Virus record (IMG/VR): IMGVR_UViG_3300035228_001973
Span: 32,001 to 96,000 of that record
Length of the DNA: 64,000 nucleotides
Reading direction: 5' to 3' (one strand)
Source of the DNA: a virus
Lineage: Duplodnaviria; Caudoviricetes
Of this stretch, positions 1 to 48,932 are shown one piece after another. A program made the position numbers and the translations under genes. The notes below the pieces were generated by a model. That model was not told where the DNA came from and did no database searches. It saw only the letters and a list, made by a program, of their open reading frames with translations. Position 1 is the stretch's first letter; each line of letters begins with the position of its first letter.

Positions 1-3000
1 CCTTGGGCTCCTCCTCCACCTTGTTGTCCCGCCGAACCTGTTGGTCCAGTTGGTCCTTGTGGTCCTCGGTAACCTTTTGGTCCTTTTAAACCTTTATTAC
101 CTACGGCACCTTTTGGTCCTTTTGGCCCTTTTAAACCTTTATCCGTTCCCTGAGGTCCTATAGGTCCTTTTTCCCCATCAATACCACCAAACCCTTGTGG
201 TCCTCTAATTCCTAGCGGTCCTTGTCCACCTCTCGGTCCTTTGTAACCTTTTGGTCCTTTAGGTCCTTTAAGACCTTTATAACCTTTATAACCTGTTGGA
301 CCTGTTGGGCCCTGTGTACCTATTAGACCTTTATAACCTTTTGGTCCCTGTGTACCAATCGAACCTCTCGGTCCTTTTTCTGTACTATTAGCACCAGTTT
401 TCCCTATGGGACCTGTCGCCCCGCCTGAAGCCTTTGGTCCTTGGGGTCCTCCTAAACCTTGTGGTCCTCTTGGTCCTTGATTACCTCTTGGTCCTGGGTC
501 GTTACCCGCTGGTCCTGTTGGTCCCGTTCCACCTTGTGCACCTGTTGAATTTGTCGGTCCTTTTGGTCCAGTTGGTCCTTGTGGTCCATCAATTCCCTTA
601 TAACCTTTATTACCTTTATCGGAACTTGCCGGTCCTTGAGCACCTGTTGGACCTGTCGCTCCTCCTGAAGCCTTTGCTCCTTGTAGTCCTCTTGAACCTT
701 GTGGTCCTCTTGGCCCTTTTTGTCCTTGTGGTCCTCTCTCTGTACTAGTTGGACCTGTTGGCCCTGTTAATCCCCCTGAAGGTCGTGAACCTTTAATACC
801 TTTAAAACCTTTATCACTAGATTGACCTATAAATGGTCCTTTTATTCCTTTATTACCTTTATCAGAACTCGCGGGTCCTGTTGGTCCACCTGGTCCTGTT
901 GGTCCTGTAGCCCCTTGTCCTGATGCTGAACCTTGTGGTCCCCTACTGGCTTGTGAACCGATTTCACCTTGAACACCCCTATCAGTACTTGCTGGACCTT
1001 GTGGTCCTGTTGGACCTGTCGCTCCTCCTGAAGCCTTCGCTCCTTGTGGACCTCTATCACCTTGTGATTGTCTTGGACCTATTGGTCCTTTTGGTCCTGC
1101 AGTATTTCCTGCGGGTCCACCTGGTCCTGTTGGTCCTACATTACCTTGTGACGACGCTGAACCTTGTGGCCCTCTTGGTCCATCGTTACCTTGTGGTCCT
1201 TTTGGTCCTATCGGTCCTCTATCAGTACTTGCTGGACCTTGTGGTCCTGTTGGACCTGTCGCTCCTCCTGAAGCCTTTGCCCCTTGTGGCCCTTGTCCAC
1301 CTCTACCAATTTGTAATCCTTTTGGACCTTTTAGTCCTTTTTGACCTTTATCCGTACTTGTTGGTCCTTTATCACCTGTGGTTGTATTTTGAGTACCTTT
1401 TGGTCCTGTTGGTCCTGTTGGTCCGTTAGGTCCTTTAGTGCCTTTATAACCTTTTTGCCCTTTAATACCTTTATCAGTACTTGATGGACCTGTCGGTCCT
1501 TGTCCACCGGTAGTTCCCTTTGGTCCTGTCGGACCTTGAGGTCCTTGTCCACCTTGATTACCTCTAGGACCTTTTGGTCCTTGTGTTCCTTTATCAGTAT
1601 TAGTTGGACCTGTTGGTCCTTGTGGACCTTTAAGTCCTTTATCGGTATTATTAGGACCTGTTGGTCCGTTGGGTCCTGTTGGTCCCGTTATACTATTTCC
1701 AATAGTTCCTCTCGGCCCATCTGTACCTTTCGGTCCTTTGATACCTTTTAAACCTTTATTACCTTTATTTGTGGGTACACCACTTGGACCTTGTTCCGCG
1801 TTAGGACCTATTGGTCCTTGTACCCCTCTCGCTCCTTTAGGTGAAGTACCAATTGTACCTTGTGGTCCTTGAAATCCTTTAGGTCCCTTATCACCTGTCG
1901 GTCCTTGTAGACCCTTATCCGAACTTACCGGACCAATATCTCCACCATCGGCAACATCACCTATAAGTCCTTTTTCATTATTACCTTGTGGTCCCTGAGG
2001 TCCCTGAGGTCCTCTGAAACCTTTATTACCATTTGGACCCTTTAGTCCTTTATCGGCACTTGCTGGTCCTGTTGGTCCCTGTGGCCCTGTCGGACCTTGT
2101 GGTCCTGAACTAGTTGAAGATTGTGGACCAATTAATCCTTTAATCCCTTTTATACCAATAAGACCTTTTAAACCTTTGGTACCTTTATCTGTACTTGTTG
2201 GTCCTTGTGGACCATTGTCCCCACCAGAACCTGTTGGTCCTTTTAGTGAATCCCCTTGTGACCCTCTATTACCATTGAAACCTTTGGGTCCGACCGGTCC
2301 TTGAGGACCTGTGGGTCCTTTAACGGCTGCGGGTCCACCTGGCCCTGTTGGTCCCTGTGGCCCAATAAATCCTTTCTCACCTTGTGTACCTATTACACCT
2401 CTACTTTGTTTAGGACCTTTTACTCCCTTAATACCTTTGATACCCTTAATACCTTTATCACCTTTGTCTGTGGATTGCGGTCCTTGAGGCCCTAAGTCCC
2501 CATTAGGTCCTTGTACACCTATAATACCATCGGGACCTTGCGGACCTTGTGGTCCTGTAAGACCTTTTATACCTTTGTTACCAATAGGTCCTTTATCGGC
2601 ATTAGGTCCTGTTGGTCCTTGTGGCCCCGTATCACCATCTGTGGCTCTTATACCTTTCTCACCTTGAGGTCCTTGTACCCCAAGAATACCTTTTTGACCT
2701 TTAACTCCCTTAATACCTTTAAATCCTTTCTGACCTTTATCAGAAGATTGTGGACCTTTTAGACCGGTAGGTCCTTGAGGTGAATCACCTCCAATATTAC
2801 CCTGCGCTCCTTGGTCTGGCTTTAACCCTTTAATACCTTTAATTCCTTTAAGTCCTGTTGGTCCTTGTTGTCCTTTATCGGTAGATGTAATCCCTTTTAA
2901 TCCTGTAGGACCTTTTAAACCTTTGGTAGATTCTGAAGGTTTTAATCCTTTCAATCCTTTTGGTCCAACTTCACCTTTATTTCCTTGTATTCCTCGGTCA

Positions 3001-3455
3001 CCTTTATCTCCTTTAACTGATAACTCACCTTTAATACCTTTTAGTCCGTCAGAACCTATACCACCTTTAATACCAAAATCACCTTTATCACCTGTAGGTC
3101 CAACAATACCCGTTTTACCTTTATTACCTTTAGTCCCTTCTATACCATCTCTACCTCTAAGACCTTTAAGTCCTTTTTGACCTTTTAAACCTTCTAGTTG
3201 ACCTACCCAATGACCTCCGGAATCAACCACCATCATACTACCAACATAAAGTTCACTATTAACAACATTGGCCTCAGCAGGTAATGATAACGGAGTATTA
3301 CTATCAGAGACTTTAAAAATATTAGTTGAAGACTTAAATATTAAATCACCTGAATTATCTATTTCAATAGCATAACTATTACCTGAACCACTAAAAATTA
3401 TATGTGGATTGGTGTTCGATGTACTTCCCGTAGGATATATTATAATATTAGCCAT
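1..3455 (-). CDS. Collagen-like fibre protein 3, partial (more than 1150 aa; C-terminus beyond the left edge; absent from the ORF track)
   Basis: ATG at 3455 overlaps the upstream TAA (TAATG). It translates as MANIIIYPTGSTSNTNPHIIFSGSGNS...GHWVGQLEGLKGQKGLKG, followed by Gly-X-Y repeats, and the same frame reads Gly-X-Y at base 3. The N-terminal domain is paralogous to those of the two upstream collagens. Confidence 0.93.
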   Translation of the reverse strand, partial: MANIIIYPTGSTSNTNPHIIFSGSGNSYAIEIDNSGDLIFKSSTNIFKVSDSNTPLSLPAEANVVNSELYVGSMMVVDSGGHWVGQLEGLKGQKGLKGLRGRDGIEGTKGNKGKTGIVGPTGDKGDFGIKGGIGSDGLKGIKGELSVKGDKGDRGIQGNKGEVGPKGLKGLKPSESTKGLKGPTGLKGITSTDKGQQGPTGLKGIKGIKGLKPDQGAQGNIGGDSPQGPTGLKGPQSSDKGQKGFKGIKGVKGQKGILGVQGPQGEKGIRATDGDTGPQGPTGPNADKGPIGNKGIKGLTGPQGPQGPDGIIGVQGPNGDLGPQGPQSTDKGDKGIKGIKGIKGVKGPKQSRGVIGTQGEKGFIGPQGPTGPGGPAAVKGPTGPQGPVGPKGFNGNRGSQGDSLKGPTGSGGDNGPQGPTSTDKGTKGLKGLIGIKGIKGLIGPQSSTSSGPQGPTGPQGPTGPASADKGLKGPNGNKGFRGPQGPQGPQGNNEKGLIGDVADGGDIGPVSSDKGLQGPTGDKGPKGFQGPQGTIGTSPKGARGVQGPIGPNAEQGPSGVPTNKGNKGLKGIKGPKGTDGPRGTIGNSITGPTGPNGPTGPNNTDKGLKGPQGPTGPTNTDKGTQGPKGPRGNQGGQGPQGPTGPKGTTGGQGPTGPSSTDKGIKGQKGYKGTKGPNGPTGPTGPKGTQNTTTGDKGPTSTDKGQKGLKGPKGLQIGRGGQGPQGAKASGGATGPTGPQGPASTDRGPIGPKGPQGNDGPRGPQGSASSQGNVGPTGPGGPAGNTAGPKGPIGPRQSQGDRGPQGAKASGGATGPTGPQGPASTDRGVQGEIGSQASRGPQGSASGQGATGPTGPGGPTGPASSDKGNKGIKGPFIGQSSDKGFKGIKGSRPSGGLTGPTGPTSTERGPQGQKGPRGPQGSRGLQGAKASGGATGPTGAQGPASSDKGNKGYKGIDGPQGPTGPKGPTNSTGAQGGTGPTGPAGNDPGPRGNQGPRGPQGLGGPQGPKASGGATGPIGKTGANSTEKGPRGSIGTQGPKGYKGLIGTQGPTGPTGYKGYKGLKGPKGPKGYKGPRGGQGPLGIRGPQGFGGIDGEKGPIGPQGTDKGLKGPKGPKGAVGNKGLKGPKGYRGPQGPTGPTGSAGQQGGGGAQ

Positions 3456-6400
3456 TAATCTATTTGTGTTCTTAACCAGTTTATTTGTTCACCTATATCT
3501 TCAATAAATACTTGGTGAGTTTTAATCGCTTCAATAATTAATGAATTTAATTTATAATATTTAATAGCTAAATAACCATCATCTCTTCTATATACCACTT
3601 CAGGGTATATTAAATTTATTTCTTGAGCTATCATACCAATTGAGTGTAACTTTTGTCTTTCTTTTAAGAAATCGTATCCTGAATATTTTTCATTCCAATC
3701 GTATTCCGTAACATTAATTTTCAAAAGTTTATTTAATGAGTCACCTATAGTTTTAATACCTAACTTCATTCTTTCATCAGAACTTCTACATTCACCACAT
3801 TCACTTAAACTACAGTTACCACCATTAGCTGCCCAATGGAACATAGACCCACTACTTAACCCACCGTCCCAAATAGTATACAATCCACTTCTAGCAGCTT
3901 TACAAAATGTAGCAAGGTTGTTACATACCGTACATGTATTATTAGTATATAAATAAGAACTATTCGTGAATTGTCCTGAAGTTGGGGAATAAAGTGTCAA
4001 TTGTGCTCCACTTCCACACGGTTCCTGCTTTCCATCACAAATACTACAGTCCCCCTCTCTTCTCAATAGTATAGTATGAGAAAAACAACTAGACGCAGTT
4101 GGTCCTTTTGGTCCTTTAATACCTTTAAAACCTTTATCACCCACAGCACCACCTGCCGCTTGTGGCCCTTGTGGTCCTTTTTGACCTGTAGGTCCTTGTG
4201 GCCCTTCTTTACCAGCCGGTCCTTGTGGTCCGTCTTTACCGTCTCTACCTTGTGGTCCTTTAAGACCTTTATAACCTTTAGGTCCTGTCGGTCCAAGTGG
4301 ACCTTGTCCACCTATAGGACCTTTATAACCTTTTACTGTAGATTGTGCACCTCTTGGTCCTTGTGGTCCAACAGACCCTTCTTTTGTATACTGTGACCCT
4401 TTTGGTCCTTGTGGCCCTCTAGGTCCTATAAGACCTTTACGACCTTTTTGTCCTTTAAACCCTGTTGGTCCGTTTTGAGTATTAGTTGGACCTATCGGCC
4501 CTGGTGAAGTGGAACCTGCACCTTGTGGTCCTCTCGGCCCACCACCACCTTGTAGACCTTGTGGACCTCTTGGTCCTTTTGGTCCCTTGACAGCTGAACT
4601 ACCACCTTGTGGTCCTTGGGCTCCTCTGTCAGTACTTGTAGGTCCTTGTTGACCTCCAACACCTTTATAACCTGTAGGTCCTACTGGTCCTTTATAACCT
4701 TTGAATGCTGCTGGCCCACCTGGTCCTGTTGGTCCTGTTGGCCCTGATTGTGGTCCTTGTGGTCCTTGTGGACCTAATGCTCCTTTAGGTCCTTTTAACC
4801 CTTTAAAACCTTTATCACCTTTACTTGAAATTAAACCTTTAGCTCCTTTAGGTCCTTTGTAACCTTTAACTGTAGAACTATTACCTTGTGGACCTAAAGG
4901 TCCTTTATAACCTTTTGGCCCTTTTGGTCCTTTAATACCTTTAAATGCTGCTGGCCCACCTGCTCCTGTTGGACCTGTTGGTCCTGATTGTGGCCCTTGT
5001 AGACCTTGTGGACCTTTTGGTCCTTTATATCCTTTTGGTCCTTTTAGACCTTTATCGGCTAACAATCCTCCACCACCCTGAGCACCTTGAGGTCCTTTAT
5101 CTCCAACAGTACCTGTAGTAGTACCTTGTGGACCTAAAGGTCCTTTATATCCTTTTGGTCCTTTAGGTCCTTTTAAACCTTTATAACCTTTGAGTGCTAC
5201 TGGCCCTGTTGGTCCTGTTGGTCCTACCGCACCTGTTGTCGGCCCTTTAGGTCCTTTTGGTCCCTTATAACCTTTTGGTCCTTTGAACCCTTTAATACCT
5301 TTGGATGCTACCGGTCCTGTTGGTCCTACGAACCCTTTTGGTCCTTTCGCTCCGGTAGCAGAACCTATCGGACCTTTGGGTCCAAAGGCTCCTTTAATAC
5401 CTTTTTGACCTTTAAGTCCCTTATATGCGGTTGGTCCACCTAACCCTGTTGGTCCTGTTAGTCCTGTATCGGTACTTTGAGTACCTTTAGGTCCTTGTGG
5501 TCCCTTTGGTCCTTTATAACCTTTAACACCTTTGAGTCCTTTAAATGCTGCTGGCCCACCTGGTCCTGTTGGTCCTGTATCTCCTGAACCTCCAGTCGTT
5601 GTACCTCTACCACCTTGAGGACCTTGTGGTCCCTTTATTCCAATGAGACCTTTACTTCCTTTTAAACCATCATCGGCTCTTAAACCTTTAATACCTTTTA
5701 ATCCTTTAAGTCCTTTAACTGTTGAAGTTGTTCCTCTACCACCTTGAGGACCTTTATATCCTTTTTGTCCTTTGATTCCTTTATCTCCGTCAGTATCTCT
5801 AAAACCTTTTTGACCTTTAATACCTTTATCACCTGTAGATGTACTTATAAGACCTTTGTCCCCTGTCACACCTTTTAATCCTTTATAACCCTTTTGTCCT
5901 TTAACCCCTTGAGGTCCTTTTAAACCTTTTAAACCTTTAATACCTTTGAGTCCCTTATCTCCTTTAGTACTAACAGGTCCTTGTGGTCCTGTTGGTCCTT
6001 GACTAGCTTTAAGTCCTTTATTACCTTGAGGTCCTATTAAACCTTTTAAACCTTTAAAGCCTTTATTACCTTTTAGTCCTTTAAGTCCTTTATTACCTTG
6101 GTCCGCCACTGGTCCCGTTGGTCCTTGTGGACCTCCATCACCTTGACTTGCAATTAAACCTTTAGGTCCTTTAGGTCCCTTAACACCTTTCTTACCTTTT
6201 AATCCTTTATAACCTTTATTACCTTTATCTCCCTGTGGTCCTCTTTGACCCTTTTCCCCTGTAGGTCCTAACTCATTACCTTGGCTTGTTGGCCCTTGAG
6301 GTCCTTTTGTCCCATCAATACCCTTTTTACCTTTTAACCCTTTTAATCCTTTAAGTCCTTTAAGACCTTTATCCGCTCCCTCACCATCTTGTGATACTGG

Positions 6401-8752
6401 ACCTTGAGCTCCTTGGTCAGCGATTATTCCTTGTGGTCCTTGTGGACCAAGTAATCCTTTTCGACCTTTTAAACCTTTAAGACCTTTATCACCTTTATTA
6501 CCGGTCGGACCTTTATCGGATTGAGGACCTGTTGGCCCTACGTCTCCTTGGCTAGCTATTAGACCTTTGATACCTTTAATACCTTTAAGACCCTTATTAC
6601 CTCTTTGACCCTTTAAACCTTTTTCACCTTTATCAGTAGAAGTATTACCTCTACCCCCATTTGGACCTTGGTCTCCGTCAGTCCCTATTTGACCTTTAGG
6701 TGAACTACCTATGGAACCATCAGGTCCTTTAATTCCTTTTGGTCCAACAACACCAACTTCACCTTTTGGTCCTTTTAAATTACCAACAGGTCCATCAACA
6801 CCCACGGGTCCTTTTTCACCTATTATACCTTTTGTCCCACCATCGGTATCAGGTCCCTTCGCTCCTTTAAGTCCTTTTAACCCTTTTAAACCTTTTAATC
6901 CTTTAGTTCCTTTATCATCACCAACAATTCCTTTATTACCTTCATCACCAGTTTCACCTTGTTGTCTTAGAAAAGACGTTAAAGCATTTGTAACAACGGA
7001 TTCAGTAAAATTATCAACAGTAGGGTCAACATCAAAACCAAAATGTTTTAGACCTGGACCATTTTTAAAACTACTTTCTAAATTTGTATAACAAGTTTCA
7101 GACGAAAGAGAAGAATAAACATTTGTCGTTATTAACGCACTTAAATTTAAATTCTCAGGACCAACTGAAGTTATGTTATCACCATATCTATTTAAAAACT
7201 CATTACTAGTGATGGTACTACCCTCAATTGCTGCTACTGCATGTTGAACAAACGCATAAGTTGAAGTACCTCTAAGTGGGTTTACAACTGGATAAACTAA
7301 ACCTTGAGCATTACCCCCTCGATTACTTTTTATATCTTCATATACTTGAACATATGAACAGTAATCGTGTAAATACCTATTTGTATATTCATCACCTGCA
7401 TTATTATTCCAATAATTACCATTCAATTCAAATGGTTTATTAAATAAGTCACTCTTAGTGGCGTTGGTTGGTGTTCCACCTAACTGTCCATGATATAGAC
7501 CAACAATACCGTCTGACTCATCCGCAACAATAATTACCAAATAGTTAGTATTATCACCACCAAATGAACCTTGTCCTGATGTTTCTGTATTATTTAAATT
7601 ACTATGGTCAAAAGGTACACCCTGAGATATGGATTCAGCTGCACCTGTATCTAAATTAACACCTCTGTTAATTCTTCTGTATATTGTTTCACCATCATTA
7701 AATTGTGAATTTCTTGGTACACAATTACCACCTGAATTAGACTGACAATAATCAGATTGATAAGTTGCGTTAGGTACCGCACTATTAAATTCACTCAATG
7801 GTGTTCCGTCACTCAATGTACCCCCACTGAGTGAACCAAGATATGGATAGGATGCCCACCATAACCAGTTTTCACCGTTATTATTGTTTTTACCAATTAC
7901 GCCCTCGTATAATTTATTAATATCACCATCACCATTTACTGTTTGGAACCAATCTCTAACACTCTGAGAGGCTTCTTTAGCTTTATCACTTGGCATCGAT
8001 GTCGCGTCATAGAAAACATAAACATCTACATTTGAGGTAATCCCAATTGGTCCTTGAGGTCCTTTTACACCTACTTCACCCTTGGGTCCAATCTCACCTT
8101 TATTTGTACCTGTTGGTCCTTGGTTACCTTTACTGGCGGATAATCCTGTAGGTCCTTTTAGTGAATCACCAATTAAACCTTTTATACCTTTATTACCTTT
8201 GAATCCTTTAAATCCTTGTGTACCTATAGACCCCTTTAATGAGTCAGGACCCGCAGGTCCGATTACACCTTGTGGGCCTATTTGACCTTTAATTCCCACG
8301 GGACCTAATGGTCCTGAGACATCCTTCTCACCTTTGATACCTTTTAACCCTTTAGTTCCTTGTTCACCTGTTGGTCCTTGTTCTGTAGAGGTTATACCTT
8401 TTAATCCTTTTTGACCTTTTAAACCTTTTTCACCATCACCATCTCTATTACCTTTAAGACCTGTCGGTCCCTGAGGTCCTTGAACACCAGTGGGTCCAAT
8501 CATATTCATAGGGTAACCTTTCCAATTACCTGAGTTATCAATTAATTCATCACTATTCTGTTTCTTTACTGAAACAGACGGCATAAACTTCATATTATCT
8601 AACTCTAAACTTGAAGTGATTTTAAAATCATTACCTAAGTGTGTGTTAAAATTCAATTCTCCGCTACCATATGCTATATTAATCATACTAGCATTAGTAC
8701 CTGAAAAATTAATTGTACCTCCTGTTGGATTTATTTTAATGTCTCTACCCAT
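3455..8752 (-). CDS. Collagen-like fibre protein 2 with inserted vWA-like domain, Cys-rich tip and C-terminal peptidase S74 intramolecular chaperone
   Basis: 1765 aa. Long GxK/GPQ/GPT repeats, a globular insert (VYVFYDATSM...LVIIVADESD), a Cys-rich segment, then SSDERMK...GMIAQEI..IYPEVV...Y. Confidence 0.92.
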   Translation of the reverse strand: MGRDIKINPTGGTINFSGTNASMINIAYGSGELNFNTHLGNDFKITSSLELDNMKFMPSVSVKKQNSDELIDNSGNWKGYPMNMIGPTGVQGPQGPTGLKGNRDGDGEKGLKGQKGLKGITSTEQGPTGEQGTKGLKGIKGEKDVSGPLGPVGIKGQIGPQGVIGPAGPDSLKGSIGTQGFKGFKGNKGIKGLIGDSLKGPTGLSASKGNQGPTGTNKGEIGPKGEVGVKGPQGPIGITSNVDVYVFYDATSMPSDKAKEASQSVRDWFQTVNGDGDINKLYEGVIGKNNNNGENWLWWASYPYLGSLSGGTLSDGTPLSEFNSAVPNATYQSDYCQSNSGGNCVPRNSQFNDGETIYRRINRGVNLDTGAAESISQGVPFDHSNLNNTETSGQGSFGGDNTNYLVIIVADESDGIVGLYHGQLGGTPTNATKSDLFNKPFELNGNYWNNNAGDEYTNRYLHDYCSYVQVYEDIKSNRGGNAQGLVYPVVNPLRGTSTYAFVQHAVAAIEGSTITSNEFLNRYGDNITSVGPENLNLSALITTNVYSSLSSETCYTNLESSFKNGPGLKHFGFDVDPTVDNFTESVVTNALTSFLRQQGETGDEGNKGIVGDDKGTKGLKGLKGLKGLKGAKGPDTDGGTKGIIGEKGPVGVDGPVGNLKGPKGEVGVVGPKGIKGPDGSIGSSPKGQIGTDGDQGPNGGRGNTSTDKGEKGLKGQRGNKGLKGIKGIKGLIASQGDVGPTGPQSDKGPTGNKGDKGLKGLKGRKGLLGPQGPQGIIADQGAQGPVSQDGEGADKGLKGLKGLKGLKGKKGIDGTKGPQGPTSQGNELGPTGEKGQRGPQGDKGNKGYKGLKGKKGVKGPKGPKGLIASQGDGGPQGPTGPVADQGNKGLKGLKGNKGFKGLKGLIGPQGNKGLKASQGPTGPQGPVSTKGDKGLKGIKGLKGLKGPQGVKGQKGYKGLKGVTGDKGLISTSTGDKGIKGQKGFRDTDGDKGIKGQKGYKGPQGGRGTTSTVKGLKGLKGIKGLRADDGLKGSKGLIGIKGPQGPQGGRGTTTGGSGDTGPTGPGGPAAFKGLKGVKGYKGPKGPQGPKGTQSTDTGLTGPTGLGGPTAYKGLKGQKGIKGAFGPKGPIGSATGAKGPKGFVGPTGPVASKGIKGFKGPKGYKGPKGPKGPTTGAVGPTGPTGPVALKGYKGLKGPKGPKGYKGPLGPQGTTTGTVGDKGPQGAQGGGGLLADKGLKGPKGYKGPKGPQGLQGPQSGPTGPTGAGGPAAFKGIKGPKGPKGYKGPLGPQGNSSTVKGYKGPKGAKGLISSKGDKGFKGLKGPKGALGPQGPQGPQSGPTGPTGPGGPAAFKGYKGPVGPTGYKGVGGQQGPTSTDRGAQGPQGGSSAVKGPKGPRGPQGLQGGGGPRGPQGAGSTSPGPIGPTNTQNGPTGFKGQKGRKGLIGPRGPQGPKGSQYTKEGSVGPQGPRGAQSTVKGYKGPIGGQGPLGPTGPKGYKGLKGPQGRDGKDGPQGPAGKEGPQGPTGQKGPQGPQAAGGAVGDKGFKGIKGPKGPTASSCFSHTILLRREGDCSICDGKQEPCGSGAQLTLYSPTSGQFTNSSYLYTNNTCTVCNNLATFCKAARSGLYTIWDGGLSSGSMFHWAANGGNCSLSECGECRSSDERMKLGIKTIGDSLNKLLKINVTEYDWNEKYSGYDFLKERQKLHSIGMIAQEINLIYPEVVYRRDDGYLAIKYYKLNSLIIEAIKTHQVFIEDIGEQINWLRTQID

Positions 8753-11700
8753 TTAAAATTTTTGATTTTAATATATTAACCCTATCTTTTATACTTTCAA
8801 TACGTGTATGTTGTTCTTGTATAGAACCAATACCAATGGCTACTAATTTACCGTAATCAAGTTTTAAATAACCACTCTCACTATTAAATACAACTTCAGG
8901 TATTACTTTTTGAATATCTTGAGCGATAAATCCGTAATCATCACCTACACTACCATCAAACTTAGTTGCTCCACCCTTCCATGTAAACTTAACACCATTA
9001 ATTAATTTTAACTTACTTAAATTACCTTTTAGAGATTTAATGTTATTTTTTAATCTTTTATCAGACGCAGGACCTTGTGGACCTTGTAGACCTTGTAGAC
9101 CTCGTGGACCTTTTGGACCTGTCGGTCCACCCGTACCTGTTGGGCCTTGCGGTCCCTTTATACCCTTATTACCTTGGTCACCTTTAGGGCCTTTGAAACC
9201 TATTGGACCATCCGCACCTGTTCCACCTTGCGGTCCTTGGAATCCTCTCGGACCTTTTTTACCTTTAACTGTTGAGGTAGCACCTTGTGGTCCTTGTAGA
9301 CCCCTCTCTGTACTTGCTGGTCCTGTTGGTCCACCCGCACCTGTTGGACCTATAATATTACCTGTGGGCCCTACAGGTCCCGTAAATAAAGATTGAAAAC
9401 CCTGTGGCCCTTGTGGTCCACTTGTACCTTGTGGTCCTTTAATTCCTTTATGACCTTTAATTCCTTTTAAACCTTTTTCTGTACTTGTTGGTCCTGTTGG
9501 TCCACCTGGTCCTGTTGGTCCACCTGGTCCACCTCCACCGCCCGGACCTCCACTACCTGACAAACCTCCGGGTCCTGTTGGTCCTTGTGGTCCCTTTATT
9601 CCTTTAAAACCTTTTGGCCCTTTATCTGTAGATTGGGCTCCTCTTAATCCTTTTGGCCCTTGTGGCCCTCTATTTCCTTTAGGTCCTTTAGGTCCTTTAG
9701 GTCCCTTAAGTCCTTTTGATGTACCGATAAAACCTTTAACACCTTTATCTGTAGATTGTGCACCTTGTGGTCCTTGTGGTCCTTTACGACCTTTAATTCC
9801 CTTGTTACCATCCGCACCTGTTCCACCTTGCGGTCCTCTTACACTACTAGCTGGTCCTTGTGGCCCTTTAACTGTTGACTCGGTACCTCTTGTTCCACCA
9901 GAACCTTGTGGTCCTCTATTTCCTTTTGGACCTTTATATCCTTTTGGACCTTTAAGTCCTTTTGCTCCACTAGTAGCCCCTATGAATCCTTTTACCGTTG
10001 AATCAGTACCTCTTGGTCCTTGTGGACCTTTAATACCTTTTAAACCTGTTGGTCCTTCTGGACCCTTAACCCCTTTTTGTCCTTTAGTAGAATTAGTTGG
10101 TCCTTGTGGTCCTTGAACTGATGAATTGGCACCTCTTGGTCCGCCAGAACCTTGTGACCCTATACCACCTCTAGGTCCTTTTGGTCCTTTAAAACCTTTA
10201 GGTCCTTTAGTAGAATTAGCGGGTCCTTTAAATCCTTTTACTGTTGAAGTTGTTCCTCTTGCCCCTTGTGGGCCTTGTACACCTAATGGTCCTTTTAGAC
10301 CTTTAAGCCCTTTTGGCCCTTTAAATCCTTTTTCAGTATTATTTGGACCTTTAGCACCTTTTACTGTTGAAATAGTACCTTGAGCACCTCTTGGTCCATC
10401 ATTACCTCTTGGACCTTTAGGTCCCTTATAACCTTTCTGACCTTTAATACCTTTAGTTGTACTAGTAATTCCTTTATAACCCTTTACTGTAGATGTCAAA
10501 CCAATGGCTCCTCGTGAACCATTAGGTCCTCTATTCCCTTTTAATCCCTTTAAACCTTTTAGACCTTTATGTCCTTTAGTATTATTAGTTGGTCCTTGTG
10601 GACCTGTTGGTCCACCTGCGGCTTGACTACCTTGAGTACCTTGTGGTCCCTTTTGTCCTTTATCTGTAGATTGTGGTCCGTTTGGTCCTTGATTACCTAT
10701 CGGTCCTCTATCAGTACTTGCTGGTCCTTGTGCTCCTTGAGCAGCTTGAGTACCTCTACCACCTTCTGGACCTTTTTGACCTTTATCTGTTGAGGTTTTT
10801 CCTCGTTGACCATCTGGACCCTTAAGTCCTTTTTCGGTGGATTGTGGTCCTCTATTTCCTTTAGAGGATGACACACCAGTACCACCTCTATTTCCTGTTG
10901 GTCCTTGTGGTCCTTTACCACCTTGTGCACCCGCACCACCTTGAGTTCCTCGACTAGGTTTAATACCTTTTAAACCTTTTTGACCTTTAATTCCTTTATC
11001 TGTAGATGTTGGACCTTGTGGTCCTTGGTCACCCTGTGGTCCTTGGTTACCTACAGTACCCGTACTTGATTGTGGTCCTTGTGGTCCAATAGGCCCTTTA
11101 GGTCCTTCAATACCCTTTAAACCTTTAGGTCCCTTAAGTCCCTTATCGGTTGAAGTCGTACCTCGATTACCTTTATTACCTAAAGATGCCCCATTACCTG
11201 TTGGTCCTTGTAGACCTTGTGAATTTTTAGGACCCTTTAATCCTTTATTACCTTTAAGTCCTTTAAGACCTTTAAATGGTGTTGGACCAACTACACCTTT
11301 TATACCTTTGTCACCTGTTGACGCTATATTTCCTTGGTTACCAATACCTCCTTGACCACCAAGTGGTCCTCTGACACCTTTAATTCCTTTAATACCTTTT
11401 AGACCTTTTTGACCTTTATCGTCACCTTTAGGTCCTTGTGGACCAGTTGGTCCTTGTGAGGCTTGTATACCAATACCTCCTTGAGTACCTCTATTAGGTT
11501 TTAAACCTTTTACACCCTTTATACCCTTTAAACCTTTTTGACCTTTAATTCCTTTATCGGTTGAGGTATTTCCTTGTAATCCTTGTGGTCCTTGTGGTCC
11601 TTGAATAGTTGTACTGGCTTGAGGCCCTTTAAATCCTTTTGGCCCTTCTAACCCTAATAGACCTTTAAGACCTTTATCGCCTTTATAACCTATAGGTCCT

Positions 11701-12861: not shown

Positions 12862-13728
12862 ATGTCAAACTACATAGTACAAACCTATTCAAGAGGTGAA
12901 GACTTAACTAATCTATTAGTTAATAAGGTAATTCTTGAGATAGAAAAAGAAACTAAAAACCATAAAACAAACATACAAGTAATAAACAACAGTAACTTCA
13001 TAGTCGTTAGAGGAAATACCACACATAAAACACCAATTAACTTATCTAAATTATTTATATCATATTATAAAATACTATTCAATAGTGATATAAATTTAAA
13101 TGTTGTTGACCTTATCGAATATGACACACCTGTTGAGGAAGAATCGATTTATTTTAAAAAAACATATACTAAAGATGAGTTATCCGATTCAATAAAAAAA
13201 CAAACCTATTTAGATACGTTAAATAATAAACACTACAGGTTTACCGCTTGTACTGATTTAAACATTGTATTTACTGCAAATGATTTTAATGAAGATATCA
13301 TAAGTGATGTGTTAAATAATTTTGAGGATTATAAAATTTTAAAAAATAATTCTTCTGTTGAAACTTTTAAATCATCACAACATTACGGTAAAAACTTAAA
13401 AACATCTAAACTTTTTGAGTCGTACTTTAACTACATTGTTTATAATATATTTGAGAGAGGACTATGTCGTGACTTAACCGTTGAATTTTTTACAGACGCT
13501 AAGTTTGACACAATTAATTGGGAGAATATATCACTTAAAGTTACCTCAGACAGTTTAATGACAAGTAATGAGTGGTTAGAATCTTTAATTTTAGATTTAT
13601 TTACATTTAAACCTGATGAAATAATTAAGAGGTGGGATTTGAATGAGTATGATTTCTCAGAAGAAATCATAAGTCATTTTAATATATGGAAAGTAAAAGA
13701 TAAAGTAGGTGAAATGATATTATTTTAA
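12862..13728 (+). CDS. Degenerate S-adenosylmethionine synthetase (MetK)-fold protein
   Basis: The N-terminal FIVVRGNTT and the C-terminal YGK...Y..YI..NI...GL...E.L..L....F...P..II...DL patterns parallel MetK. The catalytic GHPDK and GGGAFSGKD motifs are absent. Confidence 0.55.
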   Translation: MSNYIVQTYSRGEDLTNLLVNKVILEIEKETKNHKTNIQVINNSNFIVVRGNTTHKTPINLSKLFISYYKILFNSDINLNVVDLIEYDTPVEEESIYFKKTYTKDELSDSIKKQTYLDTLNNKHYRFTACTDLNIVFTANDFNEDIISDVLNNFEDYKILKNNSSVETFKSSQHYGKNLKTSKLFESYFNYIVYNIFERGLCRDLTVEFFTDAKFDTINWENISLKVTSDSLMTSNEWLESLILDLFTFKPDEIIKRWDLNEYDFSEEIISHFNIWKVKDKVGEMILF

Positions 13729-14004: not shown

Positions 14005-14031
14005 TTTAATATAATTTTATTACGTCAATAC

Positions 14032-14352: not shown

Positions 14353-14353
14353 C

Positions 14354-34462: not shown

Positions 34463-34488
34463 ATTACACTTTTTTTTAATTCTAATTA

Positions 34489-34496: not shown

Positions 34497-34513
34497 AGAA
34501 AAAACAAATTATT

Positions 34514-35371: not shown

Positions 35372-35390
35372 ACCCATATATATATAAATT

Positions 35391-35418
35391 AAAAACCCAC
35401 CGATTGGTGGGTTTTTTT
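35391..35418. terminator. Bidirectional intrinsic terminator
   Basis: aaaaacccacc-gatt-ggtgggttttttt between convergent genes. Confidence 0.85.
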
Positions 35419-35423
35419 ATGGT

Positions 35424-36746: not shown

Positions 36747-37604
36747 TTATTTTACTGAATTAATATAATCCTCTATTAAATGTCTTGGTTTCCAATTTAA
36801 AATCTCCTCAGTATCAGTTTTAAATTCCTCACTAACAAATCTTTCTCCTCGTCTTTTAGGTATAAATTCCCATTCCCCAAACATCTCAGCTATCTGTATT
36901 ATAGTATGATTAACACCACTTCTAAGATGCCACTCATGGTTTTTACTCTCTTCACTTATCAGCATTAACCCGTCCACAATATCACCAACATGTGTAAAAT
37001 CTCTCTGTTGATTACCTGGCTCAACAACCGTTAAATTTTCCCCATTATTATATTGTCTTTCAAATATACCTATAACAGTCGCGTAATCACCATCAGTTAT
37101 TTGACAAGGACCATAAACATTATAAAAATAAACAATTTCATAATTTAAGTCGTACCACTTACCATAATTTTTGATTAATTCAACCATCTTAGCTTTAACC
37201 CAAGAATAAGGGGATAAGTTTTCATCTTCACCATCATTTCCAAACTTTGATGATGATGCCGAATAAATTAACTTACTACCCCATTGTTTACACTTTTCAA
37301 TTAACTTAGATGTTGAATATAAATTAGTCTCAATAAGGTAATCAACATCATCAAAAGATTTAACTATTCTTGAATATTCACCAAAGTGATATACGACATC
37401 GGGAATAATACCCCCACCACTATCGATGTAATCATTAACTGATATGTCTACGTAAGTCACATTTGGCGAATCAATATGATTTTCTTTTTTACCTGTAAAA
37501 TAGTTGTCAACAGAGATTACTTTATAACTAGGATACTTATTAACTATACTTTTTATTAGGTTAGAACCGACAAAACCTGCACCCCCTGTAACTAATATGT
37601 TCAT
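36747..37604 (-). CDS. NAD-dependent nucleotide-sugar epimerase/dehydratase (extended SDR)
   Basis: MNILVTGGAGFVGS, YSASSS, SPYSWVK (YxxxK), NVYGP and RDFTHV motifs. Confidence 0.92.
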   Translation of the reverse strand: MNILVTGGAGFVGSNLIKSIVNKYPSYKVISVDNYFTGKKENHIDSPNVTYVDISVNDYIDSGGGIIPDVVYHFGEYSRIVKSFDDVDYLIETNLYSTSKLIEKCKQWGSKLIYSASSSKFGNDGEDENLSPYSWVKAKMVELIKNYGKWYDLNYEIVYFYNVYGPCQITDGDYATVIGIFERQYNNGENLTVVEPGNQQRDFTHVGDIVDGLMLISEESKNHEWHLRSGVNHTIIQIAEMFGEWEFIPKRRGERFVSEEFKTDTEEILNWKPRHLIEDYINSVK

Positions 37605-37605
37605 A

Positions 37606-38142
37606 CTACACTCTTTTTGAATAACCAACTATTTGGTAAAAATCTTTTATTCCATCACAGTAATCTAAGATTAACTGCAATAAGGCTTTAAACATAAACG
37701 CACCTTCACTTTGTTTTTCACATCTAATAAATAGTTCAATAAATGTTGTTAAGGTATCCATTTGATAGTATCCGTGACCGTTTAGTTCATTGTATACTTC
37801 ATCCAACTCATCTTTAACTTTTAATTCGTAATTATCTCTTTCATCAGTAGTCTTAAATGGTTCCATTTGGTCATACTTGTCTAACATATTATATACGAAA
37901 CCTCTAACCAAACCTTTATTGTATTCACACTTAACAAGTAAATCAACAATCCAATGAGTATGACTTGGGGTTCTTAATCGTTTTCCAGGTTCCCTATATT
38001 TTACAATAAAGTCTAAATCAGGGTTATCCCCTCTAAATCCTTGATAGGTGGCAATATGTGTACCATCTCTCATTTTATAATATTTTAGTGGTGGATAGTA
38101 CTCGTCTGTCCCTCTTTTCTTGTATGTTAACTCTTTTACCAT
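37606..38142 (-). CDS. Hypothetical protein
   Basis: 178-aa ORF. Confidence 0.7.
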   Translation of the reverse strand: MVKELTYKKRGTDEYYPPLKYYKMRDGTHIATYQGFRGDNPDLDFIVKYREPGKRLRTPSHTHWIVDLLVKCEYNKGLVRGFVYNMLDKYDQMEPFKTTDERDNYELKVKDELDEVYNELNGHGYYQMDTLTTFIELFIRCEKQSEGAFMFKALLQLILDYCDGIKDFYQIVGYSKRV

Positions 38143-39536: not shown

Positions 39537-40442
39537 TTACCCTATAATTTTTGTCAACCACTCTTTAAGGTCAATGTAGTTCAAAGTCCCAAATTTATCA
39601 TTATATTTAGATATGTCTAACGCATATTTTCTATCATGACCTAATCTATCTTTTACGTATTCAAACTTAACATCTTTACCAACTATCTCAGATACAATTT
39701 TAATTAATTCATTATTAGTTATACGATAACCACTACCAATATTAAAAACTTGATTAACCTCATCTGATAACATTATATTAATTATTGATTTCGCATTATC
39801 ATCGGCATGTATCCATTCTCTAACTTGTTCACCATCACCGTAGACTGGAATAGACTCATCGTTTTTAATCATTTTAATTATCTTAGGTACCATCTTTTCG
39901 GAGTGTTGGTTTTCCCCAAAATTATTACAGGTTCTAGTAATCACATAAGGTAACCCAAATGTCCTTCCAGCTGACTGTACTATTAAGTCTGAGGAGGCTT
40001 TAGTTGCAGAATAGTATGATGACCCAACCAACGAAAATTCTTCATCAGCGGACACCTCTAAACCATAATCATTCATATCCCCATATACTTCATCTGTAGA
40101 AATATGTATAAATTTCTTTAGACCTTTAACCTTTAGTGCCAATTCAACCATATTAAACGTACCCTCAACGTTAGTCCTTACAAATGGTCTACCATCTTTG
40201 ATTGAGTTATCTACGTGTGATTCAGCCGCAAAATGAACTACGTAATCACAGTCAGGTAATTCAGTCAAATTACATATATCCTCTTTAATAAATTTAACCT
40301 GAGTATTGATATTGTTAGGGTTAGACGCATATGTGAGTTTATCTATAACTGTTATTTCACAATCATTTATCTCACTATTTAATTTGTTTACGAAATGTGA
40401 ACCTATGAATCCCATTCCACCTGTAACTACTATTTTTATCAT
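39537..40442 (-). CDS. rmlB: dTDP-glucose 4,6-dehydratase
   Basis: TGGMGFIGS, DKLTYA, HFAAESHVDNSI, HISTDEVYG, YSATK and DRLGHDRKYA motifs. Confidence 0.93.
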   Translation of the reverse strand: MIKIVVTGGMGFIGSHFVNKLNSEINDCEITVIDKLTYASNPNNINTQVKFIKEDICNLTELPDCDYVVHFAAESHVDNSIKDGRPFVRTNVEGTFNMVELALKVKGLKKFIHISTDEVYGDMNDYGLEVSADEEFSLVGSSYYSATKASSDLIVQSAGRTFGLPYVITRTCNNFGENQHSEKMVPKIIKMIKNDESIPVYGDGEQVREWIHADDNAKSIINIMLSDEVNQVFNIGSGYRITNNELIKIVSEIVGKDVKFEYVKDRLGHDRKYALDISKYNDKFGTLNYIDLKEWLTKIIG

Positions 40443-45052: not shown

Positions 45053-45818
45053 GTCCTTTCTCTAAATCTTCAATATTTGTTATTTTAAAAGATAGAAATG
45101 GTCGAGGATTAGTTAAATCAACAAACTCATAAGTATCTTCATCTACACTATAAATACCAAACCCATGTTTAGTTATACTTTCTCCAAAGTTCTGTTGTAT
45201 AGTCGACCCCACCATATACGCCTTTTTATTATTAGGAATATCAATCACTTGTCTTTTATGAATATCCCCACATAATAACACATCTAAACCTTTAAATTTT
45301 TTGATATCGTAAGCATGGTCTCCAAAACCATAACCAGTATCAGTAACCAAACCTTGTATTGGGTCATGAAACAACCCTACTTTATATCCTTTAGCATTCG
45401 ATATTTCAGGTGGTATATTACCCTGAAATTGAGAGTACACACACCAACTTATATTATCGTCCTCATAAATTCCTCGGTCTCTGTAGTATACAATTTCAGG
45501 GTTTTTAAGTGAATCTATAATAGGTGTTAATGCGTCCAATCTATTAAGATTATTATTTAAAAAGTCATGATTACCCGGAATAAGTACTATTTTAGATATT
45601 TTACTACATTCGGTAAGTATCCAAGCAACAACTTCAATAAGTTCAGGTGTCATTTGATTTTTACTATGAACCAAATCACCCGTAAAAACAATTCGGTCAG
45701 GCTTTATATCTTTAAATTTATTTAACATATCAGTTATAATACGCTTATATAAATCGTGGTCTTTAAATAACCTCAAATGTAAGTCCGAAAAATGTACTAT
45801 CTTTTTTATCATAAACAA
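45030..45818 (-). CDS. sbcD: SbcD/Mre11/gp47-like nuclease (short)
   Basis: SDLH, TGDLVH, PGNHD, GDIHKRQ and GSTIQQNFGE motifs. Confidence 0.92.
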   Translation of the reverse strand: MFMIKKIVHFSDLHLRLFKDHDLYKRIITDMLNKFKDIKPDRIVFTGDLVHSKNQMTPELIEVVAWILTECSKISKIVLIPGNHDFLNNNLNRLDALTPIIDSLKNPEIVYYRDRGIYEDDNISWCVYSQFQGNIPPEISNAKGYKVGLFHDPIQGLVTDTGYGFGDHAYDIKKFKGLDVLLCGDIHKRQVIDIPNNKKAYMVGSTIQQNFGESITKHGFGIYSVDEDTYEFVDLTNPRPFLSFKITNIEDLEKGHEQLTNY

Positions 45819-46684
45819 CTAAAATATCTATCTCCCCTATCACAAAGGAAAGTTATTACAGGACCATCAGGGTTATATTTTTCAATATATCTTTCTGCGG
45901 CTAATATATTGGAACCCGCTGAAATACCTACAAACATACCGTGTTCTTTAGCTAACTTACGTGCTCTTAGTTTTGCGTCCTCTGTACTAATAGTAATAAT
46001 TTTATCAACAACAGTCAAATCAACTAAAAATTTTGAACCATCACCTATCCCTTGTATACCGTGTAAACCTGGTTCACCACCACTCATCACAGGAGACTCT
46101 TCAGGTTCCACCGCAACTATATCCATATTAAGATAATACATTTTTAACATCGGACCAACACCCATTAGTGTACCACCTGTACCTGTACCACTGATTATAG
46201 CGCTAGGTTCTATACAAATATTTTTACACTGATGTAATATTTCAACCGCAGTACCCTCTTTATGTGATTCAACATTTAAAGGGTTATTAAATTGATTACA
46301 ATTAAACCACCCATTCACCTCACACATTTCATCTCTAAGTGCAATAGCATCATCAAACGCACCGGCATCCACCTCAATAAGTTCTGCACCATAAAGTTTT
46401 AGGGTTTTCTTACGTTCCATTGACATGTTGTTAGGCATAATAATAACACACTTATACCCTCGTTCTGCAGCTAACCAAGCAAAACTAACACCCATATTTC
46501 CAGAAGTGGCCTCACATATAGTTCCACCTGGTAATAGAGTTCCGTTCTTTTCTGCCTCGTTAATAATATAAGATGCCGGTCTGTCTTTGATAGAACCTGT
46601 CGGGTTTAATAACTCAACCTTAACATATATCTTCTCACTAATCTTAAGTAATGGTGTAACACCTATGTTATCTGACAATTTCAT
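45809..46684 (-). CDS. cysK: Cysteine synthase (CysK/CysM family)
   Basis: NPTGSIKDR, EATSGNMG, GTGTGGT, HGIQGIG and D.G.RY.S motifs. Confidence 0.93.
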   Translation of the reverse strand: MKLSDNIGVTPLLKISEKIYVKVELLNPTGSIKDRPASYIINEAEKNGTLLPGGTICEATSGNMGVSFAWLAAERGYKCVIIMPNNMSMERKKTLKLYGAELIEVDAGAFDDAIALRDEMCEVNGWFNCNQFNNPLNVESHKEGTAVEILHQCKNICIEPSAIISGTGTGGTLMGVGPMLKMYYLNMDIVAVEPEESPVMSGGEPGLHGIQGIGDGSKFLVDLTVVDKIITISTEDAKLRARKLAKEHGMFVGISAGSNILAAERYIEKYNPDGPVITFLCDRGDRYFSCL

Positions 46685-47541: not shown

Positions 47542-48177
47542 TTATCTTTTTACTGAACAGAATGAAACGATAATGTACCTTTGTCCTGCTTCAACAGGTA
47601 ATCCTCCGTGCCAATGAGTTATTTGACCAGGATGAATTGATATATCACCTTTCTTTCCTTTTAATTTAGAATTCTGATTTGGAAAGTACGTACCTCCACC
47701 TTCAAAATCTTCGTTTAATGTTACTACGGTTGTTATCTGACTCGCGTCATGATGTAGTGATAAATGATACTGAGCGTATGGGTGATATCTAGCAATGAAA
47801 TTTTCACTACTCATATTTAACCATGAATTACCTTCTAACTTATACAACTTATAACTTAATGGCCATATATATTTTTTTAATATTTTTTCATAAGTATCTC
47901 CTAAACCAATAGTACCTAAAACCATATCGGTTGTTGGATAACTTTCATGCCTGTCAACAGTCCAACAATTACAAGACTCGGCCTCTTCCATTATGAAATC
48001 ACAAAACTCACTCGTAAATGCAGGGATAGTGTATATGTTTAATAATTCTTCATGTACATATAAATTAGAATTATCAGACATTAATTCTGGTTTTAAGAAT
48101 CTACGTTCCCATTCCGCGGGGTTATCATCATAGGTGTACAACTCAGGATGAATATAATTACTATGTTTAACTTCCAT
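47542..48177 (-). CDS. PLOD-type lysyl hydroxylase domain (2OG-Fe(II) dioxygenase)
   Basis: HPELY...DNP.EW, PTTD, NFIARY.P..Q..L..HHDAS, FEGGG, HPGQITHWHGGLP and G.RYIIVSF occur in the same order as in the PLOD C-terminal domain. Confidence 0.9.
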   Translation of the reverse strand: MEVKHSNYIHPELYTYDDNPAEWERRFLKPELMSDNSNLYVHEELLNIYTIPAFTSEFCDFIMEEAESCNCWTVDRHESYPTTDMVLGTIGLGDTYEKILKKYIWPLSYKLYKLEGNSWLNMSSENFIARYHPYAQYHLSLHHDASQITTVVTLNEDFEGGGTYFPNQNSKLKGKKGDISIHPGQITHWHGGLPVEAGQRYIIVSFCSVKR

Positions 48178-48328
48178 TATTTTCTTTTTTATCTCTTTTA
48201 TAATTTAGATATATCATACCAAAACATAACCCAAACATAAATGATGGGAGTTGCCCACCTGTTTCTCTACCAATTAGAAAAAATATGATTCCAAGAACCA
48301 TTAAAAAATTGTTAGATATTCTAATCAC
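48167..48328 (-). CDS. Small membrane peptide between the two hydroxylases (not in the ORF track)
   Basis: (V)IRISNNFLMVLGIIFFLIGRETGGQLPSFMFGLCFGMIYLNYKRDKKENNGS; overlaps both neighbours; start GTG 48328 or ATG 48301. Confidence 0.55.
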   Translation of the reverse strand: MIRISNNFLMVLGIIFFLIGRETGGQLPSFMFGLCFGMIYLNYKRDKKENNGS

Positions 48329-48932
48329 TTGTACAATATGTCATTAAAAAATACCTATCATTTTTATCGACTCTTTTCATACCGTATCTATGTGTTATTT
48401 GTCCGGGATACATATAAATAAAACCCTGTTTTGGTACTATGGTTTTTCCATATTTTTCAAAAACTAAATCACCACCTTTACTATTATCGTCTAATTTACA
48501 ATACATTGAAATGTGTACATTATCATGATGCATTCTAATTTCCTGTCCCTCTTGTAACTTCAAAACATTATTGTCGGGTTGTAATAGTTTCCATTTTTTA
48601 CCTTCTAAATGCCACTCTTTTTGTACTATACTAAAAATGTAATCGTGAACTAAATGAGTCATTATTTTCTCTAAATTAAACTTTTTAAGGTTTGTTGAAA
48701 AAACAGGCGTACCCCATCGATTTACTTGGTCCCAATTAATCGTTTTTAAAATCTCCACTAAATTATCACAGAATTTCGTATTAAAAAATGGAAACTCAAA
48801 CACATCAGGAGCAACTTCCTGAACCATCATATTCCACTCATATGATAAAAATTCTTTTCTTATGTTTCTACTTTTCCATAAGTCAAAGTCACTGTCATCG
48901 AACATGTCAGGATATAGGTCTTTATATACCAT
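48321..48932 (-). CDS. Second, divergent PLOD-like 2OG-Fe(II) dioxygenase
   Basis: LYPDMF, EVAPDVFEFPFF..KFCD, WHLEG, MHHD, KGG, YPGQITHRYG and DRYFL motifs. Confidence 0.8.
   Translation of the reverse strand: MVYKDLYPDMFDDSDFDLWKSRNIRKEFLSYEWNMMVQEVAPDVFEFPFFNTKFCDNLVEILKTINWDQVNRWGTPVFSTNLKKFNLEKIMTHLVHDYIFSIVQKEWHLEGKKWKLLQPDNNVLKLQEGQEIRMHHDNVHISMYCKLDDNSKGGDLVFEKYGKTIVPKQGFIYMYPGQITHRYGMKRVDKNDRYFLMTYCTSD

Follow-up and report, generated by a model that had tools for sequence, protein, structure and literature searches.

Hydroxylysine and the glucosyl-galactosyl sugars carried on it are regarded as marks of animal collagen and, to our knowledge, are known outside animals only from mimivirus. 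A candidate counterpart in a bacteriophage is described here from a stretch of 64,000 nucleotides, called the window throughout, which comprises bases 32001–96000 of the 119,041-bp IMG/VR virus record IMGVR_UViG_3300035228_001973 (33% G+C). An earlier note on this DNA, made from its letters and open reading frames, had proposed a collagen-maturation system composed of three giant lysine-rich collagens and the two halves of a split PLOD enzyme (lysyl hydroxylase plus glycosyltransferase). The window was found to hold separate genes for PLOD-type enzymes and three giant Lys-rich collagens, from which it is probable that the phage's own fibres receive an animal-like decoration. A probability of roughly 0.75 was assigned to the reading that the phage hydroxylates and glycosylates lysines of its own collagen fibres by means of separately encoded PLOD-type modules.

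In animals, the glycosyltransferase (GT), accessory (AC) and lysyl hydroxylase (LH) domains of LH3 (PLOD3; PDB 6fxk and others) lie on one chain in the lumen of the endoplasmic reticulum, and the complex of human LH3 with ColGalT1 (GLT25D1) has been solved (PDB 8zgc). R699 of the amoeba giant virus Acanthamoeba polyphaga mimivirus was assayed as a stand-alone GT+AC glucosyltransferase acting on galactosyl-hydroxylysine (Gal-Hyl), with UDP-glucose as its only donor (PMC9546862), and is reported to be a Mn2+-dependent dimer (PDB 9dyt; PMC12279948). Mimivirus L230 (PDB 6ax6) hydroxylates lysine and adds glucose to collagen peptides, and in the mimivirus collagens Pro stands at X and Lys at Y of the Gly-X-Y triplet; in mimivirus particles hydroxylysine was confirmed but glucosylation of hydroxylysine was not (PMC9614988). 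Bacterial and phage collagens are summarized in a review as being mostly free of hydroxylation and glycosylation, those of phages being short (PMC8968730). Iyer and colleagues predicted that dioxygenases of other families hydroxylate collagen-like proteins of bacteria (PMC2938197), and viral P4HA genes are listed in a Baltic virome paper, where their role is called 'cryptic' (PMC9301287).

The window genes that are compared with these systems are as follows.

3–3455, minus strand: collagen-like fibre protein A, cut by the window edge (full gene at contig 31490–35455, 1321 aa).
3455–8752, minus strand: collagen-like fibre protein B, 1765 aa.
8745–12722, minus strand: collagen-like fibre protein C, 1325 aa.
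19372–20802, minus strand: PLOD-type glycosyltransferase plus accessory domain (GT+AC), 476 aa.
47542–48177, minus strand: LH1, stand-alone PLOD-type lysyl hydroxylase domain, 211 aa.
48321–48932, minus strand: LH2, tandem paralogue of LH1, 203 aa.

The 476-aa protein was recognized by Pfam GT_PLOD (PF25342) with 242.4 bits against a cut-off of 27, over profile positions 3–241 of 246. Its residues 13–475 gave a single alignment to positions 14–492 of the human LH3 chain (GT plus accessory, E 6e-58), and its residues 13–474 aligned to residues 11–456 of R699 (458 aa, E 2e-42). By this continuous LH3/R699 alignment a second Rossmann-like domain, AC, follows the GT domain, and the earlier reading of the gene as PLOD GT plus accessory domains was borne out. 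No full-length PLOD (GT-AC-LH on one chain) was found at this gene, which stops after residue 476, the LH genes lying 27 kb off. The motifs DSYD, CWP, DDQ and HxNG were invariant in 13 GT homologues, an animal PLOD among them; the invariant residues (D92, D95, C124-W125-P126, D170-D171-Q172, H228, N230 and G231) align with the LH3 motifs. We take DxxD, the CWP loop, DDQ and HxNG to be metal and UDP-sugar motifs. The protein is a predicted hydroxylysine-linked sugar transferase. It shares the stand-alone architecture of R699 (458 aa versus 476 aa in the phage), so stand-alone GT+AC is not new in itself; the mimivirus enzyme differs in coming from an amoeba giant virus. In NCBIfam, no model matched GT+AC, LH1 or LH2.

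LH1 matched residues 501–713 of LH3 (E 2e-28) and mimivirus L230 (E 2e-23), the next family, prolyl 4-hydroxylase (P4H), reaching only 2e-3. Its iron triad and arginine (H143, D144, H188 or H190, and R200, in the motifs HHD, ITHWHGG and QRYI) were invariant in 7 sequences. LH2 is 27% identical to LH1 and by sequence matches LH3 more weakly (E 3e-7); its AlphaFold model (pLDDT 75, pTM 0.79) returned LH3 or L230 at all of ranks 1–13 in Foldseek (E 1e-13 to 2e-11, TMq 0.74–0.82), with the next family at 1e-7. H136, D137 and H181 of LH2 were invariant in 6 orthologues, and the arginine that binds 2-oxoglutarate (2OG) is replaced by lysine in two of the six (L220:3544–4155 of the related record G005 and L231:1062–1673 of G007). 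LH2 is the faster-evolving of the pair, at 36–37% versus 70–71% identity for LH1 between the same genomes. The closest solved relatives of LH1 and LH2 are lysyl hydroxylases, not prolyl hydroxylases. The assignment of both genes in 47542–48932 to the PLOD hydroxylase domain was accordingly upheld, for LH1 by sequence and for LH2 by Foldseek, and in the comparison of the three enzymes with LH3 and L230 that the earlier note had called for, the best matches were PLOD-type and not other families. The LH3 motifs (DSYD, CWP, DDQ, HxNG, HxD...H and the arginine) are kept in the phage enzymes. L230 had been named in the earlier note as a fused viral PLOD homologue; this stands for its LH domain, which matches LH1, but its GT is described as GLT25D1-like and not PLOD-GT-like (PMC9614988). 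L230 resembles the phage system also in having viral collagen substrates with Pro at X and Lys at Y (PMC9614988), and differs in being a fusion, whereas the phage LH genes are stand-alone and duplicated.

A predicted complex of LH1 with LH2 scored 0.70, the best of 3 controls scoring 0.08; of 80 solved complexes 58 attained that mark, and of 110 mismatched pairs 2. The runs agreed in at least 68% of contacts with a partner pLDDT of at least 86, and the modelled interface involves the PGQITH motif of both chains. These models suggest that LH1 probably works with LH2 as a heterodimer, although the score may reflect likeness to solved dimers, since solved LH-domain dimers exist: the LH domains of L230 and of human enzymes are dimers (PMC5802723). 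The tandem pair is kept in the relatives G001, G002, G005, G006 and G007. A third 2OG oxygenase is encoded outside the window (contig 1047–1670, plus strand; 207 aa, 36% identical to LH1 over residues 107–204, E 5e-11), where it adjoins RmlD-like (contig 1766–2446) and RmlC-like (contig 3221–3676) genes; a counterpart is present in G002.

The genes for collagens A, B and C overlap or abut at the left end of the window, and Pfam Collagen (PF01391) recognized all three products (E 1e-81 to 5e-94). Among the 311 Gly-X-Y triplets of protein A, Lys takes Y in 31% (96 Lys); the figures are 44% of 315 triplets (139 Lys) for protein B and 38% of 302 (115 Lys) for protein C, which agrees with the earlier description of three giant collagens with Lys often at Y. 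Lys at X occurs 2–4 times per protein (8 over all three), Pro occupies X in 34–43% of triplets, and no Pro was found at Y. Gly-X-Lys accounts for 350 of the 928 pooled triplets, the commonest X residues being Leu, Pro and Ile, and the X-Lys-Gly substrate motif of human LH3 is abundant in these proteins. Charge pairing cannot explain the Lys excess, because the repeats hold 92 Asp/Glu against about 420 Lys/Arg. The longest unbroken Gly-X-Y run is 19–35 triplets per protein.

Proteins B and C lie whole within the window, and each closes with a Peptidase_S74 domain, an intramolecular chaperone; the C-terminus of protein A starts with SDKRLKND, as does the S74 domain of protein C. In protein C the triple-helix repeats pass straight into Peptidase_S74; in protein B they are broken by a non-collagen insert of about 355 aa (window 6960–8032), and a Cys-rich region precedes the S74 domain. 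A vWA domain was considered for this insert and rejected, neither vWA nor any other Pfam family matching it at E up to 0.01. Runs in all three collagens are repeatedly broken by four-residue inserts (STDK, STVK, STEK, STER) in a regular Ser/Thr-containing pattern. The proteins resemble bacterial and phage collagens generally (Scl, BclA-type), which have Gly-X-Y repeats without hydroxyproline and trimerise via non-collagen end domains (PMC8968730); they differ in reaching about 315 triplets and in being accompanied by dedicated predicted Lys-modifying enzymes.

Co-occurrence of the enzymes with Lys-rich collagens, a check set beforehand, was followed from three directions. For the GT-first sampling, a profile of 13 GT homologues was used and gave 42 IMG/VR loci, including giant-virus bins at 28–44% identity. 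An LH homologue was present in 18 of 26 searched GT-bearing virus records and Pfam Collagen in 22 of 27 (own record included), 20 of these above the cut-off; of 45 case records or loci considered, 26 had collagen in the fetched stretch, and in these the median fraction of triplets with Lys at Y was 0.36. For the collagen-first sampling, a composition-blind Gly-codon pattern was used and gave at least 118 collagen loci. Among the matches listed, to which all figures for these controls refer, Lys at Y had a median of 0.011 and a mean of 0.072, and 12 of 118 loci reached 0.25. Cases and controls compared at medians of 0.36 versus 0.008 (116 control loci), with a Mann-Whitney p of 6e-10 that is an illustration and not a probability, because the rows share ancestry and include duplicates. 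GT_PLOD was detected in 1 of 89 control collagen records searched, and LH in 4 of 100 at E up to 1e-3 and in 2 of 100 below 1e-10. The two strong LH controls (2e-57 and 1e-15) are G087 and G100, whose collagens rank 1st (0.57) and 13th (0.24) of the 118 listed in Lys at Y. For the LH-first sampling, a profile of LH1 orthologues gave 35 loci, of which 6 belong to the jumbo clade, with collagens beyond the 10-kb flank. All of the remaining 29 (13 distinct value sets) carried a 748–773-aa open reading frame (ORF) and a collagen ORF of 701–2238 aa within 10 kb, with Lys at Y of 0.21–0.59 and at least 0.36 in 28 of 29. The outcome was positive in several phage lineages of differing domain architectures.

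The predicted LH, GT25 and second-GT modules of phages occur in at least three arrangements. In the first they are separate genes, as in the window phage. GT25 (PF01755) is a separate gene of 255–259 aa, far from the other genes, in G005 and G006; in G006 it sits about 88 kb beyond the collagens, and at that position it would be off the end of the window phage's contig. The phage set differs from LH3/ColGalT1 in having two LH paralogues and, in these relatives, GT25 as a third separate gene. P0031, a GT homologue of 57% identity, carries GT25 on the same chain. Beside these stand P0088 and its relatives (also in G005, G013, G014 and G025), 692-aa GT_PLOD proteins with a methyltransferase domain after the GT domain.

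In the second arrangement, found in T4-like cyanophages and roseophage CRP-6, GT25, GT_PLOD and LH lie on one chain of about 590–680 aa. The fusion is encoded three genes after a tail fibre of 55–59 triplets with Lys at Y of 0.37–0.44 in S-CAM9, S-PRM1, S-8S53, S-8S55 and S-8S56, and two genes after a collagen-like fibre (99 triplets, Lys at Y 0.26) in CRP-6. A fusion near a Gly-X-Lys fibre was thus seen in 6 of 7 distinct GT-positive phage records, the seventh being an 8-kb fragment. The collagen-like fibre is gp222 in S-CAM9 and gp60 in CRP-6. S-CAM9 and S-PRM1 are isolates from named Synechococcus hosts, WH7803/WH8102, and CRP-6 is one from a named Roseobacter strain. Their proteins (S-CAM9 gp218, S-PRM1 gp162 and CRP-6 gp58, annotated as hypothetical or as 2OG oxygenase) have, like the G087 type, the same predicted job near Gly-X-Lys tail fibres, and differ from the window enzymes in carrying all modules on one chain without the accessory domain. 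Identity to the window proteins is 24–32% for the GT25+GT_PLOD+LH fusions and 39–47% for the LH domain of the GT4 type against LH1. The word 'collagen' is absent from the accessible text of the CRP-6 genome paper. The third arrangement is GT4+GT25+LH, as Pfam reads the 748–773-aa ORF in G087, and all 29 non-jumbo loci of the LH-first sampling are assigned to this fusion. In this lineage (G087, L219:1513–4364) a Sulfotransfer_2 protein (195 aa, E 1e-17) is encoded directly after the fused enzyme, which hints at sulfation of fibre or glycan.

Relatives of LH1 were drawn from a library of 1.84 billion representatives, 747 of which matched at E up to 1e-10. The closest are C-terminal LH domains behind other modules, these being GT4/GT1, GT25 or GT_PLOD in 9 of 10 scanned and DUF6445 in the tenth. 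That LH recurs together with GT25 and a second transferase parallels the reaction order of animals. Bacterial GT homologues were found at 22 loci, mostly of Bacteroidota; they consist of the GT domain only (about 270 aa), have no LH within 10 kb and probably serve other roles. One metagenome-assembled genome of Ca. Poriferihabitaceae, a lineage name that suggests sponge association, encodes a fused GT25+GT_PLOD+LH protein of 664 aa (L197:9290–11281, on an 865-kb contig), with no collagen within 10 kb. The split PLOD of the earlier note stands in so far as GT+AC and LH are separate genes about 27 kb apart; with GT25 also separate in relatives, a modular LH, GT25 and second-GT toolkit looks a better fit to the window genes than two halves of one enzyme.

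The distribution of these modules bears on whether the collagens are their substrate. The enzymes could be truly PLOD-type and act on other virion proteins (e.g. Pro/Thr-rich mucin-like ones), host proteins or DNA bases, the Lys-rich collagens being coincidental. Neither the GT nor the LH genes adjoin the collagens in this genome, the phage encodes several further glycosyltransferases and giant Pro/Thr-repeat proteins, the LH of one record (G019) is paired with a collagen without Lys at Y, and cyanophages hold many 2OG oxygenases of obscure role. Yet LH1 matches lysyl over prolyl hydroxylases by about 20 orders of magnitude, fusions of three different architectures, from phage groups unrelated to one another, all lie beside Gly-X-Lys collagens, and GT_PLOD and strong LH are nearly absent, among the matches listed, where the collagen Y residue is Thr, Gln or Ser. 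A substrate other than collagen is judged unlikely.

Several observations weigh against decoration of the phage's own collagens. The near-identical records G013, G014 and G025 have the GT, which in them bears a methyltransferase insert, with collagen Lys at Y of 0.06 and a weak 2OG match only. In G019 an LH 42% identical to LH1 directly precedes a collagen-like ORF without Lys at Y, which has a hydrophobic N-terminal stretch. The complete 217-kb G090 has a Lys-rich collagen (0.38, in only 29 triplets) and neither enzyme, and G003, a 38% fragment, has GT and a Lys-rich collagen, LH not being found in the fragment. GT25 gave no match in the 119-kb record (41% complete). Collagen C lies 6.6 kb from the GT gene and the GT gene another 27 kb from the LH genes, and with the three kinds of gene so dispersed this genome offers no sign of an operon. 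A tree of LH domains (34 rows) left its deep nodes open, and no donor or direction is therefore claimed for the phage enzymes. Four metatranscriptome libraries, each from a different study, gave contigs that cover portions of the GT gene and of neighbouring genes at about 94% identity; these contigs are no proof of transcription because such libraries can contain DNA. The enzymatic steps and their order, the sugars and the site of the collagens on the virion are all inferred.

Under the favoured reading, it is inside the bacterial cytoplasm that the phage would mature its collagen-like fibres, with the order of steps as in animals. LH1, probably as a dimer with LH2, would use Fe2+, 2OG and O2 to hydroxylate Y-position lysines of unfolded Gly-X-Lys-Gly repeats. 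A COLGALT-like GT25, its gene presumably in the unsampled 59% of the genome, would then add the first hexose to hydroxylysine, and GT+AC would add a further sugar from a UDP-sugar, as R699 and LH3 do. The chains would finally trimerise from their C-terminal S74 chaperones, followed by S74 self-cleavage. As far as sequence reaches (families, motifs and co-occurrence), the earlier proposal of hydroxylysine-glycosylated collagen fibres in a bacterial cytoplasm is supported.

How much sugar would be added is a separate matter. The phage might only hydroxylate, or place a single glucose on hydroxylysine as L230 does, with GT+AC inactive or directed at another acceptor and no animal-type disaccharide formed. 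The missing GT25 match in 119 kb would fit this, as would the ability of L230 to put glucose directly on hydroxylysine and the unconfirmed glucosylation on mimivirus particles (PMC9614988). It is opposed by the invariant GT motifs, by GT25 in the relatives G005 (99% complete) and G006 (56% complete), by other phages in which GT25 is joined with LH and either GT_PLOD or GT4, and by the requirement of R699 for Gal-Hyl as acceptor (PMC9546862). Restriction to hydroxylation or a single glucose seems about as improbable as a substrate other than collagen. The boldest form of the proposal is that marine phages make animal-type glycosyl-galactosyl-hydroxylysine on giant collagens inside bacteria, with a modular toolkit in at least three architectures and, in this phage, an LH1-LH2 heterodimer. 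This form is put forward tentatively, as something possible that we would sooner doubt than accept.

The source virus is probably a marine tailed phage with a genome of roughly 300 kb, of which the 119-kb record represents 41% by CheckV estimate. Nearly all window genes are on the minus strand, and no tRNA gene was found in the window. The contig encodes a sigma-70-type factor (phrog_351, E 6e-54), SbcC- and SbcD-like nuclease subunits, a DnaG-type primase, an Amidase_2 protein, a 792-aa lysin matching PG_binding_1 and GH19, and a 1607-aa protein bearing SprB repeats. The relative G005 (297 kb, 99% complete) has LH1 71% and GT 54% identical to the window proteins and, around LH, a series of ORF lengths equal to that of the window; in G006 (56% complete) the values are 87% and 63%. 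Terminase was searched for in the 119-kb contig and in fragments of four relatives and was not found, but Terminase_6N is present in G005 and G006. Metagenomes of marine water and sediment from 17 studies contain the stretch, and one of these may be its source.

Were the contig instead that of a eukaryote giant virus, the chemistry would be of the mimivirus type in a eukaryotic cell. GT homologues do occur at 28–44% identity in giant-virus bins, fibres with S74 and collagen are also known from polinton-like viruses of protists (PMC12220804), and the 119 kb hold no capsid or terminase gene. Against such an origin stand the sigma-70 factor, SbcCD, the DnaG-type primase, Amidase_2, the PG_binding and GH19 protein and the SprB repeats on the contig, as well as Terminase_6N in G006 and in G005, which is syntenic around LH. 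A search of G005 and G006 for a capsid of nucleocytoplasmic large DNA viruses (NCLDV) gave no match, which is weak and in itself uninformative because the search equally gave none in any control genome. A giant-virus origin is considered very improbable, and the gene content supports a tailed phage of bacteria. SprB repeats, low G+C and the Bacteroidota homologues of the GT domain hint weakly at a marine Bacteroidota host.

Two sugar-nucleotide genes had been counted with the collagen system in the earlier note.

39537–40442, minus strand: 'RmlB', best family dTDP-glucose 4,6-dehydratase (E 1e-90), at 304 bits below the equivalog cut-off of 365.
36747–37628, minus strand: short-chain dehydrogenase/reductase (SDR), ambiguous between families and not assignable to GalE.

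Both genes are present, but no link to the collagens was found for either; RmlB falls under its cut-off, the SDR is ambiguous and R699 uses UDP-glucose only, and the two were left out of the system as candidate sugar suppliers. Giant Pro/Thr-repeat (TPTNTPT) proteins, one of 2165 aa, are encoded at window 53649–63666 and contig 95721–100291, and next to their genes a GlcNAc-type transferase (PF11397, E 3e-64) and a protein resembling HtrL_YibB are encoded. This block could be a second, separate protein-glycosylation system, perhaps served by the Rml genes. Host-like genes occur at window 12862–15858, 24163–25113 and 45809–46684, among them a glutamine synthetase (Gln-synt_N and Gln-synt_C). 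Other host-like ORFs were named by eye only (thioredoxin-, glutaredoxin-, DnaJ- and cysteine-synthase-like), and the ORF at window 12862–13728 had no Pfam match.

In the open literature, with subscription journals and supplements such as the cyanophage and CRP-6 gene tables outside its reach, this chemistry was found described only for animals and giant viruses, and no account of lysyl hydroxylation or hydroxylysine glycosylation in a phage was found. The family assignments support as new the predicted presence in bacteriophages, as separate genes, of the PLOD/GLT25 set for collagen lysine modification of animals and mimivirus. If the boldest form of the proposal holds, the metazoan PLOD and COLGALT enzymes would represent a single fused variant of a toolkit passed around between phages, bacteria and giant viruses, perhaps one older than animals. 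A recurrent, complete enzyme set in phages would place both the beginnings and the spread of collagen lysine modification outside eukaryotes. The enzymes, which presumably fold and work in a bacterial cytoplasm, would be a possible aid for making modified recombinant collagen. For the phages themselves it would mean a new kind of fibre decoration, which may tune adsorption.

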